This document shows, piece by piece, positions 6,751 through 47,372 of a stretch of DNA of 64,000 bases. Within the stretch, counting starts at the first letter, position 1. Each line of letters opens with the position of its first letter. A program made the translations under genes and the position numbers. Source of the stretch: Alphaproteobacteria bacterium (lineage in GTDB: Bacteria > Pseudomonadota > Alphaproteobacteria > RF32 > CAG-239); NCBI GenBank assembly GCA_045613125.1, contig JAZLAM010000020.1:4782-68781 (forward strand), read 5' to 3'. A model generated the notes under the pieces. It was not told the origin of the DNA, ran no database searches, and worked only from the letters and a program-made list of their open reading frames with translations.

Positions 6751-6883
6751 GTTTTTCTCCTAAAAATGTTGTTTTAAGAGAATATAATTATCATATAGAA
6801 AAAATCCACTATGTAAAATATAAAACTTGTATTTGAGCTGAAAGCGTAATATTGTAAATATATAGTTTTAAAAGGAGATGGTT

Positions 6884-8539: not shown

Positions 8540-11500
8540 ATGGCAAAAATTAAAACTTTTGCAGCCGTTGTTTTATGTGCTGTAATGTTCATTTCCTCTT
8601 CATGTGAGGAACAAATGGAATCAACCTATGTAGGTTTTTCTGAAGGAATTAAAAGTACAAATATGAAGTACGAAAGTATGGAATATATTGTAAAGTTTGA
8701 CACGATAGTGAATGAATTATTCACTGTTGAGCAGAATGTACTAGGAGACATCGTAGAGTATGAAAACGATCAAGCAATTGACGTAAGTAGTTTTTTCTAT
8801 GAGTTAGATCTTAACGTTAAATTTAACGTTGAACCACAGCAGGTTTATGTTCTAAAAAAGGAACAACTGAGTTCTGTTGCGATGACATCGTCAAATGTAG
8901 CAGATAAAGTTGTTAAAGACAGTACGGAAGATGATTTCACCCTTACTTCGGTTGGATGTGAATATGAGTTTGTTTTTAACGAGGGCGAAAAAGTTGTAGC
9001 AAAAAGTGTATATGAGAAAGTTTCTCATATGGACACAACTTTTTCATATGCTGAAATCAGTCGGGTATCGTATAAGAAAAGCGATAGTAAACTGGATGAG
9101 GTAAAGACAAATGAGGATTCGATCGTGCATGATGTAAATTTCTATTTTGATGTAGAAATGATTATCAAGCGAGATACCGATGAAACAAGGACGTATGTGG
9201 TAAGAGTACCTGTGGAAAGAATTTACATGGAAGAGCTGGCAGAAGCTGTAACTGAGATTAAGGATTTGGAGTATAAGGGAAAATTTGCCGTAAGGGAAAG
9301 CGAACTTTATACAGTTGAACAATATGATTTAGGTTATTATGTGACGACATTGAAGGACAAAGAAGTTACCCGTAAGATGTTCAAATATGATCTGGATTTG
9401 AATGTTAAGTTCGATATCAATCCTAAAAAAGTGACAGTTGATAGTCCAAACAAATTAACGGATGTTGCGCTTAAGAGTGCGACGGCAGGAGATGAAGTTA
9501 AGCAAGAAATTAACCAAGATGAGTTCACCAAAGCTACAGTTGAACGTGACTATGAGTTTGTGTTCAATGAAGGTGAGGTTGTAACGGCAAAATCTTTATA
9601 TCAATATCTTTATAACAAAGATATGACATTTGCATATGCTGAGATTAGAAGTGTAACATATAAGAGATATGATACAAGTCCTAATCCTAACTCAAGCGAA
9701 GATGTAAAGATTTATGATATCGACCTTTATTTTGAGGTTGATATTGAGGGTAAGGAAGGTGCTAATATTGACGGAAAATATGAAGTAGTAGTTTCATATC
9801 AACGTGTATACGAGGTACCTGATACCCCCGTTTCTGAGACGGTGATAGAGAACGTAGAATATGTGGGTCAATTTGATACCATAACCAAAAAACTCTTTAC
9901 CGTAAGACAAGAAGTCAATGGTGATTTTGTAACCTACACTCAAAATAATGAAGAAATATCAAAAGAGCATTTTGAGAGAAAATTAAATCTTGAGGCAATT
10001 TTTGATATTCCTGCTGTTGTTTACGTAAATAGCGAACAAGAACTTGCAGATGTCAGTTTGACCAGCAGCTCAAAGGATGGCAACAAGGAAACAAAGTCAA
10101 GTTCGGATGGCTTTACCACTATAACTCGTTCGCAAAATTATAACTTTAAGTTTAATTGCAATGAGAATGTGGTTTCAGCAACTGAATATGACCGAGAAAC
10201 CTATGGTGATACATTGTTGATTTATTCTTCAATTGATAATATTACATACAAAAATTGTAATGTTGAAAAGAACGAAGCAAAATCTAATGTTGATTCAACC
10301 GTATATGATGTTATGCTTTACTTTAATGTAAATGTAAAACGTCATGTCAAAACAACATCTAAAACCCATCTTGTTGCTGTTCCTTATGCTCGTGTTTTGA
10401 AACATGTAGCAAAAGATACTCTTGTAAAGAAAAATTATCGTGATGTAAGAAGAAAAATTCTTTCAAGCACTACGGAATTAGTTTCTTTTACTGAGTATGA
10501 AATTTGGAGTGTTTCAGGCGAGAAAAATGCTAAGACAATCTCTAAAGTTTTGAACTTTGGTTTTACTAATCCATCAAATCAGACAGTTTATACAACCAAT
10601 ACTAACTATAAGACAATGTCTAATGGTTCTGTAGAGGGAAAAGAAACTTCAAGCAAGGATGGAAATTGGACGGTTTATACTCAAACTAACAATTATTCAT
10701 CAACAGCTGACAATGGAAATAAGTCCTTTAACAATAAGTATTCATATAATAGCCAAAAAGCTATTTATACAAATGAACACTATACTGTTGAATTTGCTTA
10801 TGGCAATTGGTCTGTAAACGAAGGTTCAAGTAATGTCGGTTCTAAGAATGGTGAAACAACATATAATGGTAATGCATACGAAGTTTATCCATATGTAAAC
10901 AACGTATCTTACACTTATGATGTTGAAGATGATTCTTATAGTGGTAATGGACAGTCAAATGTGAATGTTTGCATTGAAAAACCGGAAGAAGATATTCTTG
11001 TAGCTATCAATTATCGTGATGTAAGAAGAGAAATTCTTTCAAGCACTACGGAATTAGTTTCTTTTACTGAGTATGAAATTTGGAGTGTTTCAGGAGCGAA
11101 AAACGCTAAGACAATCTCTAAAGTTTTGAACTTTGGTTTTAATAATCCTTCATCACAGACAGTTTATACAACCAATACTAACTATAAGACAATGTCTAAT
11201 GGTTCTGTAGAGGGAAAAGAAACTTCAAGCAAGGATGGAAATTGGACAGTTTATACTCAAACTAACAATTATTCATCAACTGCTGACAATGGAAATAAGT
11301 CATTTAACAATAAGTATTCATATAATAGTCAAAAAGCTATTTATACAAATGAACACTACACTGTTGAATTTGACTATGGAAGTTGGTCTGTAAGCGAGGG
11401 TTCAAGCAATGTCGGTTCTAAGAATGGTGAAACAACATATAATGGTAATGTATACGAAGTTTATCCATATGTAAACAACGTATCTTACACTTATGATGTT

Positions 11501-12019
11501 GAAGATGATTCTTATAGTGGTAATGGACAGTCAAATGTGAATGTTTGCATTGAAAAGGAAGTCGGTTCTATTATTCCTGAAGAATGGGGTAAAATTATCG
11601 GCGCAGGTATTTCAGCTGTTCCGGCAGATGATGTAAATGGTACTTATGCTAAAAAGTGCTTGTGTATCAGGACTGAAAACGGAGCTGTTTCTGTTGTTTT
11701 TGACATGAACTCTACTGTTCCTACTGTAGAACAAATTCTGGGAGGTAACTTTGTAGTAGGTGATTATGATGCAACATACAACAGTGGTGTGTATACTAAT
11801 GGTGAATGGGAGCCAGCAATTGCTAAGGATTTGAGTGATCGTATTGCATATTATCAAGGTGAAACTTGTATGCGTAATATTCGTCACACTACTTTGCAAC
11901 GTTGGAATTGGAGAAATGGTAATATGTCAACAGTTGTTGATGGTTATGTATTCTCAGTTTCCAACAATGGAACCATTACAATTATGTATAATGGACAATC
12001 TGTTATGCAAATGCGTTAA
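8540..12019 (+). CDS. large repetitive surface lipoprotein (1159 aa), Asn/Tyr/Ser/Thr-rich, internal repeats
   Basis: Signal peptide with lipobox-like FISSSC. Three divergent ~200-aa repeats, each containing motifs such as EYEFVFNEGE..VAKS.Y and FYFDVE. Then two ~97% identical 192-aa repeats and a unique ~150-aa C-terminal domain. No known catalytic motif. Confidence 0.6.
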   Translation: MAKIKTFAAVVLCAVMFISSSCEEQMESTYVGFSEGIKSTNMKYESMEYIVKFDTIVNELFTVEQNVLGDIVEYENDQAIDVSSFFYELDLNVKFNVEPQQVYVLKKEQLSSVAMTSSNVADKVVKDSTEDDFTLTSVGCEYEFVFNEGEKVVAKSVYEKVSHMDTTFSYAEISRVSYKKSDSKLDEVKTNEDSIVHDVNFYFDVEMIIKRDTDETRTYVVRVPVERIYMEELAEAVTEIKDLEYKGKFAVRESELYTVEQYDLGYYVTTLKDKEVTRKMFKYDLDLNVKFDINPKKVTVDSPNKLTDVALKSATAGDEVKQEINQDEFTKATVERDYEFVFNEGEVVTAKSLYQYLYNKDMTFAYAEIRSVTYKRYDTSPNPNSSEDVKIYDIDLYFEVDIEGKEGANIDGKYEVVVSYQRVYEVPDTPVSETVIENVEYVGQFDTITKKLFTVRQEVNGDFVTYTQNNEEISKEHFERKLNLEAIFDIPAVVYVNSEQELADVSLTSSSKDGNKETKSSSDGFTTITRSQNYNFKFNCNENVVSATEYDRETYGDTLLIYSSIDNITYKNCNVEKNEAKSNVDSTVYDVMLYFNVNVKRHVKTTSKTHLVAVPYARVLKHVAKDTLVKKNYRDVRRKILSSTTELVSFTEYEIWSVSGEKNAKTISKVLNFGFTNPSNQTVYTTNTNYKTMSNGSVEGKETSSKDGNWTVYTQTNNYSSTADNGNKSFNNKYSYNSQKAIYTNEHYTVEFAYGNWSVNEGSSNVGSKNGETTYNGNAYEVYPYVNNVSYTYDVEDDSYSGNGQSNVNVCIEKPEEDILVAINYRDVRREILSSTTELVSFTEYEIWSVSGAKNAKTISKVLNFGFNNPSSQTVYTTNTNYKTMSNGSVEGKETSSKDGNWTVYTQTNNYSSTADNGNKSFNNKYSYNSQKAIYTNEHYTVEFDYGSWSVSEGSSNVGSKNGETTYNGNVYEVYPYVNNVSYTYDVEDDSYSGNGQSNVNVCIEKEVGSIIPEEWGKIIGAGISAVPADDVNGTYAKKCLCIRTENGAVSVVFDMNSTVPTVEQILGGNFVVGDYDATYNSGVYTNGEWEPAIAKDLSDRIAYYQGETCMRNIRHTTLQRWNWRNGNMSTVVDGYVFSVSNNGTITIMYNGQSVMQMR
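10415..11566 (+). repeat. near-perfect tandem duplication, 2 x 576 bp (192 aa), inside the lipoprotein CDS
   Basis: aattatcgtgatgtaagaaga... at 10433 recurs at 11009 (offset 576 bp). Only scattered substitutions (e.g. K/E, E/A, T/N, A/D, N/S, A/V at protein level). Confidence 0.85.
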
Positions 12020-12040
12020 ATCTTTTCACATTATTAATTA

Positions 12041-12066
12041 CGGCGCCTTTACAGGCGCCGTTTTTG
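12041..12066 (+). terminator. rho-independent terminator
   Basis: cggcgcc tttaca ggcgccg hairpin, GC-rich in an AT-rich background, followed by T5. Confidence 0.7.
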
Positions 12067-12086
12067 TGTTAATAAAATTATAACAC

Positions 12087-12692
12087 TTAATCAGAGTGTT
12101 TTTTCCACTTATAAAAATAAACATAACAAAAATAGTCATTATCACAAGCATTATTACAAGCCTCTTTGATATCAGCTAATGTATAGCTTGTTTTAATCTC
12201 AAGATTATAAACGTTATCTGTAATTGTTGAGTATATAAAATTATGATCACCACTATAAGTTACAGCACTTATCGCATTATAATTAATCGGTAATGCAGTT
12301 TCCCAATGATGGGATAAAAAATCTACACAAAGATTTATACGATTACTTTCTCTAAAAGTTATTCCAAAGGCACCATAGCTTAATTGTATCTCACCACCAT
12401 TAGGAAGCGTACATTTATAAGACGCATCGCACAACGCTTTATCTACTATGCCTAATTTTACTGCATTTTGATTAGATATTTCTTCATCTTCGTCAGAGTT
12501 TTTTAACAACAATTCATTCAAGCCCATCAAAATATTAGAAACAATATCTACAGTTTTATTCATTTTTTGTTTGTACATGGCTTTAGAATAACCGGCAATG
12601 CCTCCAACTGACAAGACACCGATGATGGCCAAGACGCCAAGCATTTCTACCATACTTCTTCCGTCTTGATTGTTTTTAAATAATTTCATCAA
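12087..12692 (-). CDS. type IV pilin-like protein (prepilin-type N-terminal cleavage/methylation domain), orphan
   Basis: Class-III signal: short basic leader, cleavage-site Gly, then RSMVEMLGVLAIIGVLSV with Glu at +5. C-terminal Cys pairs (CDASYKC; CNNACDNDYFC) typical of a pilin D-region. SD aggag 8 nt upstream of the ATG. Confidence 0.6.
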   Translation of the reverse strand: MMKLFKNNQDGRSMVEMLGVLAIIGVLSVGGIAGYSKAMYKQKMNKTVDIVSNILMGLNELLLKNSDEDEEISNQNAVKLGIVDKALCDASYKCTLPNGGEIQLSYGAFGITFRESNRINLCVDFLSHHWETALPINYNAISAVTYSGDHNFIYSTITDNVYNLEIKTSYTLADIKEACNNACDNDYFCYVYFYKWKKHSD

Positions 12693-12722
12693 AAAAAACT
12701 CCTAAAAATGATATTTAGTCAA

Positions 12723-12749
12723 ATTATAAGTTTATTTTTTTTTTTGCAA
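12723..12749 (-). promoter_or_regulatory. putative pilin promoter: -35 TTGCAA, 15-bp spacer containing an A11 homopolymer, -10 TATAAT (minus strand)
   Basis: Minus strand reads cTTGCAAaaaaaaaaataaacTTATAATttgac about 40 nt upstream of the SD/ATG. The homopolymer is T11 on the plus strand at 12735-12745. Confidence 0.45.
12735..12745. repeat. homopolymeric T11/A11 tract inside the promoter spacer (candidate slipped-strand phase-variation switch)
   Basis: Counted directly from the sequence. Confidence 0.8.
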
Positions 12750-12956
12750 GCATTAAGTGTAGAACTTAGGGAAAAAAAGGTAAAAAAGTCGTTCTTCATC
12801 ACAAATCAGAGCCAAGTTTACTTGACTCTGAAGAGTATATTTTAAGGAAAATATATTCGATCGCTTGGATACTTCGTAAATAGCATTGGCTTAGACGAGG
12901 AAAAATTAAACATTATGAGGGGTTTCAAGGACGACAGGATTTATGTCGGTATAACG

Positions 12957-12982
12957 AAAAGGCTCTCAAAAGAGAGCCTTTT
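12957..12982 (-). terminator. hairpin terminator downstream of the fadL-family gene
   Basis: aggctctc aaaa gagagcct perfect 8-bp stem, with T-run on the minus strand side. Confidence 0.6.
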
Positions 12983-13024
12983 CTATAGAAATCCCTGTTT
13001 ACTGAGGATATCTATTTTACTTAA

Positions 13025-14269
13025 TTAGAATTTATAATTAAGTGATAAACCAAACAACTGAACAGAGTTAGAAAAATCTACTGAAGTTCTTGATGTGTCA
13101 TTTGGTGTAATATTTTGTGTATTCATATGCGCTTTGTGAGCATAAATATAAGTATAAGACAAATCAAAACTCAATTTTTCGTTGTATTGATAGTTAAGAC
13201 CTGTAGAATACCATAAGCGGTCAGAGTCCGGAATACGAGGAGTTCTGTGTTTTAAGCGAGCAGCAGCTTGATCATAAGCCAAACCTAAACGCCATTTCCA
13301 TTGATTATCAATTTGATAACTTGCACCAACGGCAAAGAAGTTTGTATCACGCCATTTTTCTTTAACTTGAGAAACTTGAGATTTTGTATCTTCTCCCATA
13401 ATCGTCAAGTAATCAAAAGAACTCCAAAATACACGTTGATATTCTGCCATAACAGCCCATTTTTCACTTACTTGGTGGAAAATGCCAATTGAAGCCATTG
13501 CAGGAGTTGTTAAGTGGGCACTGATATCTTGATTAAGCAAAATGCTAGGTGCTGAAGATTCAATTTCACCTTTTAATTTATGCTTAACTTCACTTCTGTA
13601 CCCCAAACCGATACGAGTATTATCGTTAAATTCATACAAAGCACCTAATTGATAACCGATATCAAATGTGTCACCTTCTAAACGAGTATGATATGTTCCA
13701 TATACAGTATTCGTTAATTTTGCTTTCATATATTGTAATTGAGCGCCAGCCCCTATTGATAATTTATCAGTTGCTTTATATGCAAGAATCGGAGTAACCG
13801 TAACGGAGGTAACTTTTGAAGTGATACCATGGTCAGAACCTGCCCAATTTTTATCATATTTTGTTACCATACCATAAGGAACGTTCATTGTAACACCTAA
13901 AAATGTTTTTTCATCAATCTGATGTGAAAAAGCCATATTAGGAGCAACTGCAGCATGCACAATGTTGTTTATATCAGAATCTCTATGTGTTTCACCACTG
14001 TTGTCTATATATTTAACATTTTCAGCTCTTGCTTTTGGAGCAATGTATGTCCCGCCAATGTTAAATTGAGTTCCGCTTTGTCTTGTTAAACCAGCTGCGT
14101 TAAAATAAGCATAAGAATTGTTTTCGGCACCTGCTGTTGCACCTGCAAAAGCGTTACCTTGAGCTGCGGCTGACTGTTCACGTAAATGGAAACCAGCAGC
14201 ATTTGCATTGGCAGCTAATAAAACAGTTCCCAATGCTGTTAAAGTCAAAAATTTATTCATATTATTCAT
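13025..14269 (-). CDS. fadL: outer-membrane long-chain fatty acid/hydrophobic compound transporter, FadL/OmpP1/TodX family
   Basis: Signal peptide ...ANANA followed by AGFHLREQSAAAQGNAFAGATAG N-terminal hatch motif. Beta-barrel-like alternating pattern and terminal aromatic residue (…NYKF). Confidence 0.8.
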   Translation of the reverse strand: MNNMNKFLTLTALGTVLLAANANAAGFHLREQSAAAQGNAFAGATAGAENNSYAYFNAAGLTRQSGTQFNIGGTYIAPKARAENVKYIDNSGETHRDSDINNIVHAAVAPNMAFSHQIDEKTFLGVTMNVPYGMVTKYDKNWAGSDHGITSKVTSVTVTPILAYKATDKLSIGAGAQLQYMKAKLTNTVYGTYHTRLEGDTFDIGYQLGALYEFNDNTRIGLGYRSEVKHKLKGEIESSAPSILLNQDISAHLTTPAMASIGIFHQVSEKWAVMAEYQRVFWSSFDYLTIMGEDTKSQVSQVKEKWRDTNFFAVGASYQIDNQWKWRLGLAYDQAAARLKHRTPRIPDSDRLWYSTGLNYQYNEKLSFDLSYTYIYAHKAHMNTQNITPNDTSRTSVDFSNSVQLFGLSLNYKF

Positions 14270-16925: not shown

Positions 16926-17474
16926 ATGAAATTGTTTGTTGCGCTATTTTTATTTATACTTCCGATAACAGCTAATGCTTCTAATTGCAAGGTGGGGTGT
17001 GTGGATATGCCCACGTGTGAAGATTTGGGATATTCTAAAACTATACGTTGTGGTAATGGTAGTGATGTTGTTTTATGCCCGTTTGATTCTTCATATAAAT
17101 GGTGCAAACAATATTCTTGTGAAGATGGTAAATATCGTTCATCTGCTCCTACTGGAGAGGAGGGGTGGAATTGTCCTGAGGTGAGTTATAATGGTTTAAA
17201 ATGTTATAATTGTTCATGTAAGCCTTCTGATGATTGTATATATAATAGCCAAAATAGAGGATCAGGAACTTTAAGTAATAGATGCTGTAATGGTAACTAT
17301 AAAAAATGTATAACTAATTGCCCAGGTAATGAAAAGTATCCAAAGAATTCTACACCGACTTATTCGGCCTGTTTAGATTGTGGCAAGACAATTATGTATA
17401 TAAGTGGTTTTACATGTAATGAAGGTTACGTAAAAAGTGATAATGGTGAGAGATGTGTAAACAAGCCATACTAA
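16926..17474 (+). CDS. secreted cysteine-rich protein (20 Cys in ~160 mature residues), EGF-like/knottin-like spacing, function unknown
   Basis: Signal peptide MKLFVALFLFILPITANA. Cys motifs such as CNEGYVKSDNGERC and CYNCSC. No enzymatic motif. Confidence 0.55.
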   Translation: MKLFVALFLFILPITANASNCKVGCVDMPTCEDLGYSKTIRCGNGSDVVLCPFDSSYKWCKQYSCEDGKYRSSAPTGEEGWNCPEVSYNGLKCYNCSCKPSDDCIYNSQNRGSGTLSNRCCNGNYKKCITNCPGNEKYPKNSTPTYSACLDCGKTIMYISGFTCNEGYVKSDNGERCVNKPY

Positions 17475-46100: not shown

Positions 46101-47372
46101 ATGGCTTTGTATCGAAAAATAGCAATCATAATAATGAGTTTGTTTATGTTTTTTTCAAACAGTGTAAAAGCTGTTGAATATACTCCTAAAGAGTGGTTAG
46201 ATTGGCTTGATAATTTAAAAAAAGAAATGATTTCAAAAGGAATAAGTGAAAAAACTATTCAAAAAGCTTATAGTAATAAGACATATTATCATAAAACACC
46301 TGAAGTTGTTCAAAAAGATAAAGAACAGACGGAATTTGTTTTGACTTCAAGAGATTATGTAAATAAGTTAGTAAATGAAAAAAGAGTTGATATTGCTCGT
46401 AAGCATTATAAAAAATTACAAAAAAAATATCAAAAAATAGAAGAACAATATGGAGTGCCACTTAATTATTTGACTGCTTTTTGGGCAATTGAGACTAATT
46501 TTGGGCAAAATAAGGGAAAATATCATATAATTGACGGTTTAACAAATTTGAGCTACAAAAACCGACGTTCCAAATTTTTTAAAAATGAACTTTATAATGT
46601 CTTAAAAATTATGGAAAAGTTTGAACTTGAAAACGATAAAATGATGGGATCTTGGGCTGGTGCTATGGGGCATTTTCAATTTATGCCTTCTACGTATAAT
46701 GTTTATGCTATAGACTACGATAACGATGGCATAATTGATATTTGGGATTCTTTTGATGATGCTGTTGCATCGGCAGCAAATTATCTTAGCCATCTAGGGT
46801 GGAAAAAAGATGAACCTTGGGGAATGAAAATAAGCTTACCTTGGAATTTCGATTATACTCAAATCGGATATAAAAAGGTTAAAACTCTTGAAGATTGGGC
46901 AAAAATAGGAATTAGAAAAACAGATGGTAAAAAAATAGATTTGAATTCTGACTTGAAGGCATCGATTATACTTCCTGATGGAAAAAAAGGAAATGCTTAT
47001 ATTATACTTTCTAATTTCAAAAGGATTATGATTTGGAATCGATCTGAAAACTATGCTTTGGCTGTGGCAAGATTGGCAGATTATATTAAAAATTCCCAAA
47101 AATATACTCCTATAAGTTCTGATAGACAATATTTGTTAACTGATAAAGATGTTAAAAAAGTTCAGCGATTTGCAAATAAATTGTTGCGAACAAAATTAAA
47201 AGTAGATGGAATTTTAGGTCCTAAAACTAGAGATGCTGTAAAAATTTTGCAAAAAAAGGCAAAAATGCAACAAGATGGATATCCTGATTATCAATTATTG
47301 CTAAAAATTGATAACTATAATCCTAAAATGGGGTTTATGGTGCCTGTTCAACCTATAAAATCGGTAAAGTAA
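46101..47372 (+). CDS. lytic murein transglycosylase (MltB/SLT_2 family) with C-terminal PG_binding_1 domain
   Basis: Signal peptide; SLT_2-like core; C-terminal LLRTKLKVDGILGPKTRDAVKILQKK peptidoglycan-binding repeat. Confidence 0.75.
   Translation: MALYRKIAIIIMSLFMFFSNSVKAVEYTPKEWLDWLDNLKKEMISKGISEKTIQKAYSNKTYYHKTPEVVQKDKEQTEFVLTSRDYVNKLVNEKRVDIARKHYKKLQKKYQKIEEQYGVPLNYLTAFWAIETNFGQNKGKYHIIDGLTNLSYKNRRSKFFKNELYNVLKIMEKFELENDKMMGSWAGAMGHFQFMPSTYNVYAIDYDNDGIIDIWDSFDDAVASAANYLSHLGWKKDEPWGMKISLPWNFDYTQIGYKKVKTLEDWAKIGIRKTDGKKIDLNSDLKASIILPDGKKGNAYIILSNFKRIMIWNRSENYALAVARLADYIKNSQKYTPISSDRQYLLTDKDVKKVQRFANKLLRTKLKVDGILGPKTRDAVKILQKKAKMQQDGYPDYQLLLKIDNYNPKMGFMVPVQPIKSVK

Follow-up and report, generated by a model that had tools for sequence, protein, structure and literature searches.

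Conserved promoter modules with a poly(A) spacer upstream of scattered type IVb-like pilin genes as candidates for slippage-tuned expression in uncultured gut Alphaproteobacteria

A pilin gene on the minus strand of the window, by which we mean the whole 64-kb stretch of DNA analysed here, is preceded by a promoter-like sequence whose spacer consists largely of an adenine homopolymer, and the question raised by this locus is whether the length of that run could set the expression of the gene. The initial annotation had proposed that it could, describing an orphan pilin gene under a candidate phase-variable switch. We approached the question through the protein, the genomic setting, the promoter and the corresponding regions of related loci.

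The gene, at positions 12087-12689, was assigned as encoding a type IVb-like major pilin (200 aa plus stop; leader MKLFKNNQDG|RSMVE). The open reading frame listing begins it at a TTG at 12692, resulting in the 201 aa given initially, but the homologues all begin with MKLFKNN, so that the ATG at 12689 is the likely start; the pilin gene was thus correctly recognized, whereas its start was not, and a length of 200 aa is probable. The class-III prepilin leader claimed for it was found as described, the N-terminus (MKLFKNNQDG|RSMVEMLGVLAIIGVLSVGGIAGY) having Gly at -1 and Glu at +5 with a hydrophobic helix next. In an alignment of 50 sequences, G10, R11, S12, M13, E15, the hydrophobic helix, C121 and C178 were invariant, and C182 and C188 were nearly so. 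The protein's own matches to Pfam N_methyl (E=0.012, 15.6 bits vs a cut-off of 21.2) and, at the N-terminus, to TIGR02532 of NCBIfam were below threshold, and its identification as a pilin draws on the invariant residues together with the domains of its relatives, a profile match to BfpA and an AF2 model. A database search returned at least 7996 relatives, mostly in Alphaproteobacteria MAGs, and many of these relatives carry PF05307 (bundlin) and PF08805 (PilS N-terminal). The profile of the 50-sequence alignment matched BfpA (1zwt; E=1.7e-5) with the cysteines aligned, making a disulfide-bonded D-region a candidate feature of the C-terminal part, and the AF2 model (pLDDT 81.7) comprised a helix at residues 12-63 and a globular alpha-beta pilin head packed on this alpha-1 helix. 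The protein was closer, in sequence or fold, to TcpA, CofA, BfpA and PilS than to type IVa pilins or T2SS pseudopilins, and its residue at +1 is Arg instead of Phe; the leader, on the other hand, is 10 aa and not the long leader of type IVb pilins (about 15-30 aa). As judged from these features, the protein is a type IVb-like major pilin with an unusually short leader and Arg at +1. Leaders of 40-57 aa occur in some paralogues (P0010, P0020 and P0045), those of P0020 and P0045 being a different conserved long leader from that of P0010.

Pfam scans of about 50 ORFs in the 64-kb window gave no PilB, PilC, PilD, PilQ or Tad component, in agreement with what had been noted for pilB, pilC, pilD and pilQ, and only one pilin-like N-terminus was present. 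The window genes are of the housekeeping type (secDF, yajC, metG, thyA, folA, rplM/rpsI, ppdK, dnaJ and pyk), with fadL-like, aas-like and other genes besides. The pilin gene is predicted from the sequence to be a stand-alone transcription unit made up of a terminator, a promoter, a short 5'UTR, the gene and a second terminator. The first of these, a terminator-like hairpin 5' of the promoter (12806-12831, minus strand) found by scan, insulates the unit from the fadL-like gene, and the second, a GC-rich hairpin identified by scan and reading (12040-12061, assigned to neither strand), is likely a bidirectional terminator, lying between the pilin gene and a convergent gene for a 1159-aa protein (8540-12019, plus strand). 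This protein has a lipoprotein-like signal peptide and no Pfam match, and contains two near-identical internal repeats of about 190 aa.

The same layout was observed in the relatives, in which the neighbours of the pilin genes were a methyltransferase gene and PTS genes (L002), lepA and recR (L003), rplT and pheST (L023), ppdK (L032), or uvrA and queH (L038), and some related contigs had two or more pilin copies. All pilin copies examined were complete genes, each equipped with a promoter, Shine-Dalgarno sequence, leader and terminator of its own. Since scattered single genes with their own promoter and terminator are the norm in this very large paralogue family, the label 'orphan' is misleading: the gene does stand alone, but this is no peculiarity of it. 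An exact-protein look-up gave no identical record for the window pilin or the adjacent fadL-like protein. A scan of a genome collection with the pilin protein gave a single true relative (L003), its Duganella matches being weak and unrelated; a JGI metagenome scan with a pattern spanning the -10 hexamer to the Shine-Dalgarno sequence gave 14 loci, of which L019 was the one relative and the other 13 matched by chance; and two viral-contig scans gave no relatives.

Direct reading of the minus strand upstream of the gene gave the order ACACTTAATGC-TTGCAA-AAAAAAAAATAAACT-TATAAT-TTGACTAAATATCATTTTT-AGGAG-TTTTTTTTG-ATG. The predicted -35 hexamer TTGCAA (12744-12749), preceded by c, and the predicted -10 hexamer TATAAT (12723-12728) are separated by 15 bp, composed of nine further A's and TAAACT, and the A11 homopolymer (12735-12745) accounts for 9 of the 15 spacer bases and the final two bases of the -35 hexamer, as had been claimed for this site. 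Directly 5' of the -35 hexamer lies a conserved block, ACACTTAATGC (12750-12760), which could be a putative activator site or UP-like element. The Shine-Dalgarno sequence AGGAG (12699-12703) is followed, up to the ATG, by a T8 run (12691-12698), the second length-variable homopolymer of the unit; in the relatives this run is T8, T7 or TCTTTT, which alters the spacing between the Shine-Dalgarno sequence and the ATG. An Rfam search of 11900-13100 gave nothing near any gathering score, so that the leader contains no known riboswitch or sRNA. Another CATTTTTAGGAG, at 6768, proved to be the ribosome-binding site of an aldo-keto reductase gene.

A stock promoter scan, which admits spacers of 16-18 bp only, gave no match in the intergenic region upstream of the pilin gene. 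When the scan was relaxed (-35, TTG and at least 4/6; -10, TAnnnT and at least 5/6; spacers of 14-18 bp) and applied upstream of long ORFs in the window and the related loci, the sole match in that region was the TTGCAA/TATAAT site, which upholds its description as the only good promoter match there. We infer that this predicted sigma-70-type element is the promoter actually used. Sigma-54 promoters are common for pilin genes, and TTGC was considered as a -12 element (TGGCAC-N5-TTGC, GG-N10-GC); this was rejected, there being no GG 10 nt upstream in either class of the module described below. Alternative hexamer registers that would give spacers of 16-17 bp (CTTGCA, GCTTGC, TAATTT) were likewise rejected as poor matches or missing from class 2.

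Comparison with relatives indicated that the element recurs in two classes. Class 1 was represented by eight promoter blocks belonging to orthologues and paralogues that show 60-77% aa identity and lie among unrelated genes. Between about -50 and the start codon, the mean column identity of these blocks was 87%, and farther upstream they were unrelated. TTGC (TTTC in one block), TATAAT, AGGAG and ATG were invariant, as was CACACTT.AT within the block 5' of the -35 hexamer, and the indels of the 140-nt alignment were confined to the poly-A run, the poly-T run and a single G. Class 2, GACTCGTATAAA-TTGC-A(n)-CGGTT-TAGAAT, lies upstream of the more distant pilin genes P0016, P0018 and P0020 and also precedes two DUF4402 genes with different flanks, the class-2 pilin and DUF4402 copies having only the core TTGC-A(n)-CGGTT-TAnnAT in common. 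TTGC is thus kept in both classes, apart from the single TTTC. Because conservation over genes of 49-77% aa identity and in two classes extends to the run, both hexamers and the 5'UTR, the TTGCAA/TATAAT pair is, by comparative sequence evidence, a conserved promoter-like element and not a chance match. The shared core in front of pilin and DUF4402 genes indicates that the A run is part of the module and that several putative surface-protein genes are served by it, which suggests one promoter module common to several surface-related genes. The DUF4402 genes encode small proteins with a hydrophobic N-terminus; their copies of the module, TTGC-A12/13-CGGTT-TAnnAT, were located at L032:3509-4000 (also in L033, L034 and L037) and at L023:3157-3260, and in L032 a pilin promoter of the same type and the DUF4402 promoter point away from each other.

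Among the homopolymers of the window, the A11 run is the longest, and it is the sole A/T run of 10 or more; the other long A/T runs are one of 9 and seventeen of 8, and no G or C run exceeds 6 in the 64 kb. According to an analytic Markov-type estimate, about 1.4-5 A/T runs of 11 or more are expected per 64 kb from composition alone, and A11 by itself is within chance expectation. For A/T runs of 9 or more, on the other hand, 2 were observed against 11-28 expected, and in the light of this strong depletion the retention of a pure A11 stands out and suggests selection. Relatives, moreover, have the run and both hexamers at the corresponding position, and this recurrence is not explained by chance. 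The only other A/T run of 9 or more, an A9 at 36621-36629, forms part of the spacer in the predicted rplM-rpsI promoter (TTGACA-agcA9tatg-TATATT, 16 bp spacer), and an A8 at 46047-46054 lies in the spacer of a predicted promoter of a transglycosylase gene at 46101. The presence of A8-A9 in housekeeping promoter spacers means that the organism may generally place A runs just 3' of the -35 hexamer in its promoters.

We compared the length of the run among relatives, and it ranged from 9 to 13, the A11 of the window being compared with loci of relatives. Within class 1, the window (A11, spacer of 15 bp) was matched in length by the first copy in L003, by both copies in L019 and by P0010 in L030/L031 (A11 in 2/2 samples), all with spacers of 15 bp, and differed from L002 (77% aa; A12, 16 bp), from L006 (69% aa; A10, 14 bp) and from the second copy in L003, in which the run is interrupted (A8-C-A3, 16 bp); lengths of 10, 11 and 12 were thus found among orthologues. 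Within class 2, the run was A12 in 6/6 samples of P0020, in 2/2 samples of P0018 and on 4/4 contigs of the first DUF4402 gene, whereas it was A9 in L021 vs A12 in L022 at P0016, with an identical protein, and A12, A12, A12 and A13 at the other DUF4402 gene, where one A (A12 vs A13) is all that separates L037 from L034 in 2551 bp. At four of the six loci sampled more than once, no length variation was found in the assembly consensus. As a control, the upstream region of the run-free pilin paralogue P0096 was identical in seven contigs. Single-base indels at non-repeat sites were also present in the same assemblies, making assembly error a possible source of length differences, although the agreement of six independent assemblies on A12 at P0020 indicates that homopolymer calling was reproducible. 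The phase-variable switch proposed initially is therefore only partly sustained: the conservation of the module and the lengths of 9-13 among relatives speak for it, and the stability of most runs at the same locus (6/6, 4/4, 2/2 and 2/2) speaks against it.

The L021/L022 pair requires separate treatment. Between L021:597-1485 and L022:39-928, the CDS and 3' flank are 100% identical over 735 nt, and the promoter and 5'UTR (150 nt) differ by about 25 substitutions and indels, so that recombination rather than slippage may explain the A9/A12 difference at this locus. This mosaic suggests that upstream blocks may be exchanged by recombination. A further rearrangement was observed in L001 (Logan SRR24653741), a 96%-identical allele that shares the fadL-side flank of the window: in the comparison of L001:1-215 with window 12696-12950, the promoter block of about 220 bp (window 12915-12696) is missing entirely, and an in-frame insert of 135 nt is present in the leader-coding region. 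P0010 (L030:1249-1420 and L031:284-455) has this insert as well, there with the A11 promoter retained. An assembly chimera was considered for L001 and set aside, since the 135-nt insert is found in two independent ENA contigs and there is no repeat of mis-join length at the junction.

The spacer of the pilin promoter had been described as short, and the relaxed scan agreed with this: the predicted promoters of non-pilin genes had spacers of 16-18 bp, mostly 17 (ppdK, metG, 16926, 46101, 57422, rplM and others), so that 15 bp is 1-2 bp below those elsewhere in the window, and every 15-bp match of the scan was a poly-A module. At sigma-70 promoters, a spacer of 17 bp is optimal and one of 15 bp is weak. 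Because the pilin promoter also lacks a TG extended -10 motif, the usual state of the module is predicted to be of low output. The window allele (A11, 15 bp) would then represent a low-output state, and A12 or A13 (16-17 bp) are predicted to be higher-output states. The expectation that a gain of 1-2 nt by slippage would bring the spacer to its optimum held for the first step, as seen in the A12 of the orthologue in L002 (16 bp), but not for the second, a 17-bp spacer being found in none of the pilin promoters examined. The commonest spacer was 15 bp in both classes, reached as A11+6 in class 1 and as A12+5 in class 2, and this compensation suggests selection for that geometry. A spacer of 15 bp could be the selected working state and not an 'off' state, and the conserved block upstream may be where a regulator acts.

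From these observations, the reading that we favor, at a confidence falling slightly short of even, is that individual pilin paralogues have their expression set by a conserved promoter module that slippage can tune. Each paralogue would be a self-contained unit in a very large family of uncultured animal-gut Alphaproteobacteria, transcribed from a sigma-70-type module, TTGCAA-poly(A)-N5/6-TAtAAT, with a spacer consisting mainly of an uninterrupted A run. Slippage during replication would add or remove single bases in the run, and such changes of length, presumed to be frequent and reversible, would alter both the distance and the rotation between the -35 and -10 hexamers. Promoter output would accordingly depend on run length, and promoter strength would shift heritably and independently for each paralogue, resulting in an on/off switch or a graded 'rheostat'. 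A more far-reaching version is unlikely, though worth stating: a genome-wide set of pilin and DUF4402 genes on a portable poly(A) promoter that idles at a sub-optimal 15 bp, in which slippage, independent for each copy, would give a Gram-negative commensal of the animal gut Vlp-like combinatorial pili built by one assembly machine encoded elsewhere.

The alternative that survives best, and that we regard as a tentative but serious possibility, is a fixed architecture without switching, in which the poly-A spacer serves structure or recognition within a surface-gene module regulated in trans. The run could be a rigid A-tract, or a shared regulator or specialised sigma factor could bind or bend the DNA there, and the length differences would be rare neutral or mildly deleterious mutations. 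Such an architecture would be expected to hold its length, as it does at the loci with 6/6, 4/4, 2/2 and 2/2 identical samples, and it accommodates the compensation that keeps 15 bp between classes, the conserved block adjoining the -35 hexamer upstream, the A8-A9 in housekeeping promoter spacers and the retention of the core, including CGGTT, before unrelated genes (pilin and DUF4402) with different flanks. It is less easily reconciled with the occurrence of lengths 9, 10, 11, 12 and 13 at homologous positions and with the contig pair that differs by the A run alone; in addition, no regulator or alternative sigma motif was found, the sigma-54 pattern GG-N10-GC being absent on direct reading.

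A quite improbable alternative is that the shared promoter, 5'UTR and N-terminal blocks provide the homologous arms through which gene conversion or cassette exchange proceeds, in a manner like that of pilE/pilS, so that promoters and variable C-terminal domains are shuffled and the run length travels with its block. The L021/L022 mosaic is of the kind that this would produce, as are the allele in L001, which has the same gene and fadL-side flank without the whole promoter block, and the near identity of the block between tandem paralogues. All copies examined, however, are complete genes, unlike silent pilS cassettes, and the L037/L034 difference is a pure 1-nt change of the run; recombination is also compatible with the slippage model and does not exclude it. 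Compositional chance combined with homopolymer errors of metagenome assembly, which would make an A11 near AT-rich hexamers unremarkable at 33% GC and would fit the runs of 11 or more expected per 64 kb and the non-repeat indels, is highly improbable, being largely refuted by the conservation of the run, hexamers and 5'UTR at 49-77% aa identity in two classes and opposed by the depletion of long runs and by the A12 that six independent assemblies give at one locus.

The slippage model, if true, would be a case of the classical contingency switch with a repeat in the promoter spacer, a mechanism already known, and it is the host and the gene family that would be unusual. Judged by analogy, the closest parallel in overall design is the Mycoplasma hyorhinis vlp family, the runs of which are longer (about 17-20 A). 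Poly(A) insertions and deletions in all vlp promoters are stated to switch the genes on and off (PMC10502178, citing Citti and Wise 1995), and the likeness extends to a multigene family of surface proteins with one transcript per gene, a conserved promoter and leader, a variable body and an A run in the promoter (PMC10502178). The vlp products are lipoproteins of a wall-less Mollicute for which switching was shown experimentally; here, in contrast, a Gram-negative alphaproteobacterium has runs of 9-13 A, as a candidate switch, in front of genes for type IVb pilins. The type IVb major pilins CofA (9iuf), TcpA (8uhf), BfpA (1zwt) and PilS (1q5f) are encoded within assembly operons, usually as the single major pilin, whereas the window pilin belongs to many scattered stand-alone paralogues and has a 10-aa leader, Arg at +1 and no machinery within 64 kb.

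Repeats also control fimbrial genes in Bordetella pertussis (poly-C at fim2/fim3) and Haemophilus influenzae (TA repeats at hifA/hifB). Known for these and proposed for the present genes is the control of a fimbrial subunit gene by the repeat length in its promoter region, and the fim genes are likewise unlinked to assembly genes; the differences are that fim and hif encode chaperone-usher fimbriae with C or TA repeats and that fim needs the activator BvgA, whereas the window gene encodes a type IVb pilin and has an A repeat. The promoters of Neisseria meningitidis porA (poly-G) and opc (poly-C) carry similar tracts. As proposed for the present module, a mononucleotide run in the core promoter sets transcription via spacing and strains differ in its length, but porA, opc and nspA are single-copy genes for outer-membrane proteins. 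At nspA, a run of 5A vs 6A upstream of the -10 hexamer sets transcription, and yet phase variation was undetectable by the authors despite the effect on expression (PMC6389960). The nspA case indicates that length polymorphism and an expression effect are by themselves no proof of a switch. A graded form of control was reportedly described by Aberg and colleagues in 2014 for the Helicobacter pylori sabA promoter, whose T-tract is said to act as a 'rheostat'. There, an A/T mononucleotide run near the core promoter leads to graded, heritable adhesin expression, as the present run may do for pilins, the difference being that the sabA run adjoins the -35 hexamer upstream and lies outside the spacer. 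Related work is also available (PMC11162790).

If run length sets expression here, switching by promoter-spacer contingency would be extended to the type IVb pilins of uncultured gut Alphaproteobacteria from a range so far known mainly from pathogens such as Mycoplasma, Neisseria, Bordetella and Haemophilus. It would also explain why there are many scattered, complete major-pilin genes, each tuned alone with consequences for adhesion or for exposure to phages or immunity. Should the run prove to be a fixed structural spacer, the modules would represent an ordinary family of promoters that are unusually short-spaced. The signature TTGC-A(9-13)-N5/6-TAnAAT could be used for mining metagenomic reads for length heterogeneity within populations.

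Two more window genes gave minor observations. A 2027-aa ORF (36763-42846, minus strand) has as its only Pfam match a short M48 peptidase segment near the N-terminus, and its 2046-aa homologue in L032 adjoins ppdK as well as a pilin paralogue. The gene at 16926-17474 (plus strand), downstream of a predicted promoter of canonical form, TTGCAA-17 bp-TATAAT, encodes a secreted protein of 182 aa that is rich in cysteine and has no Pfam match.
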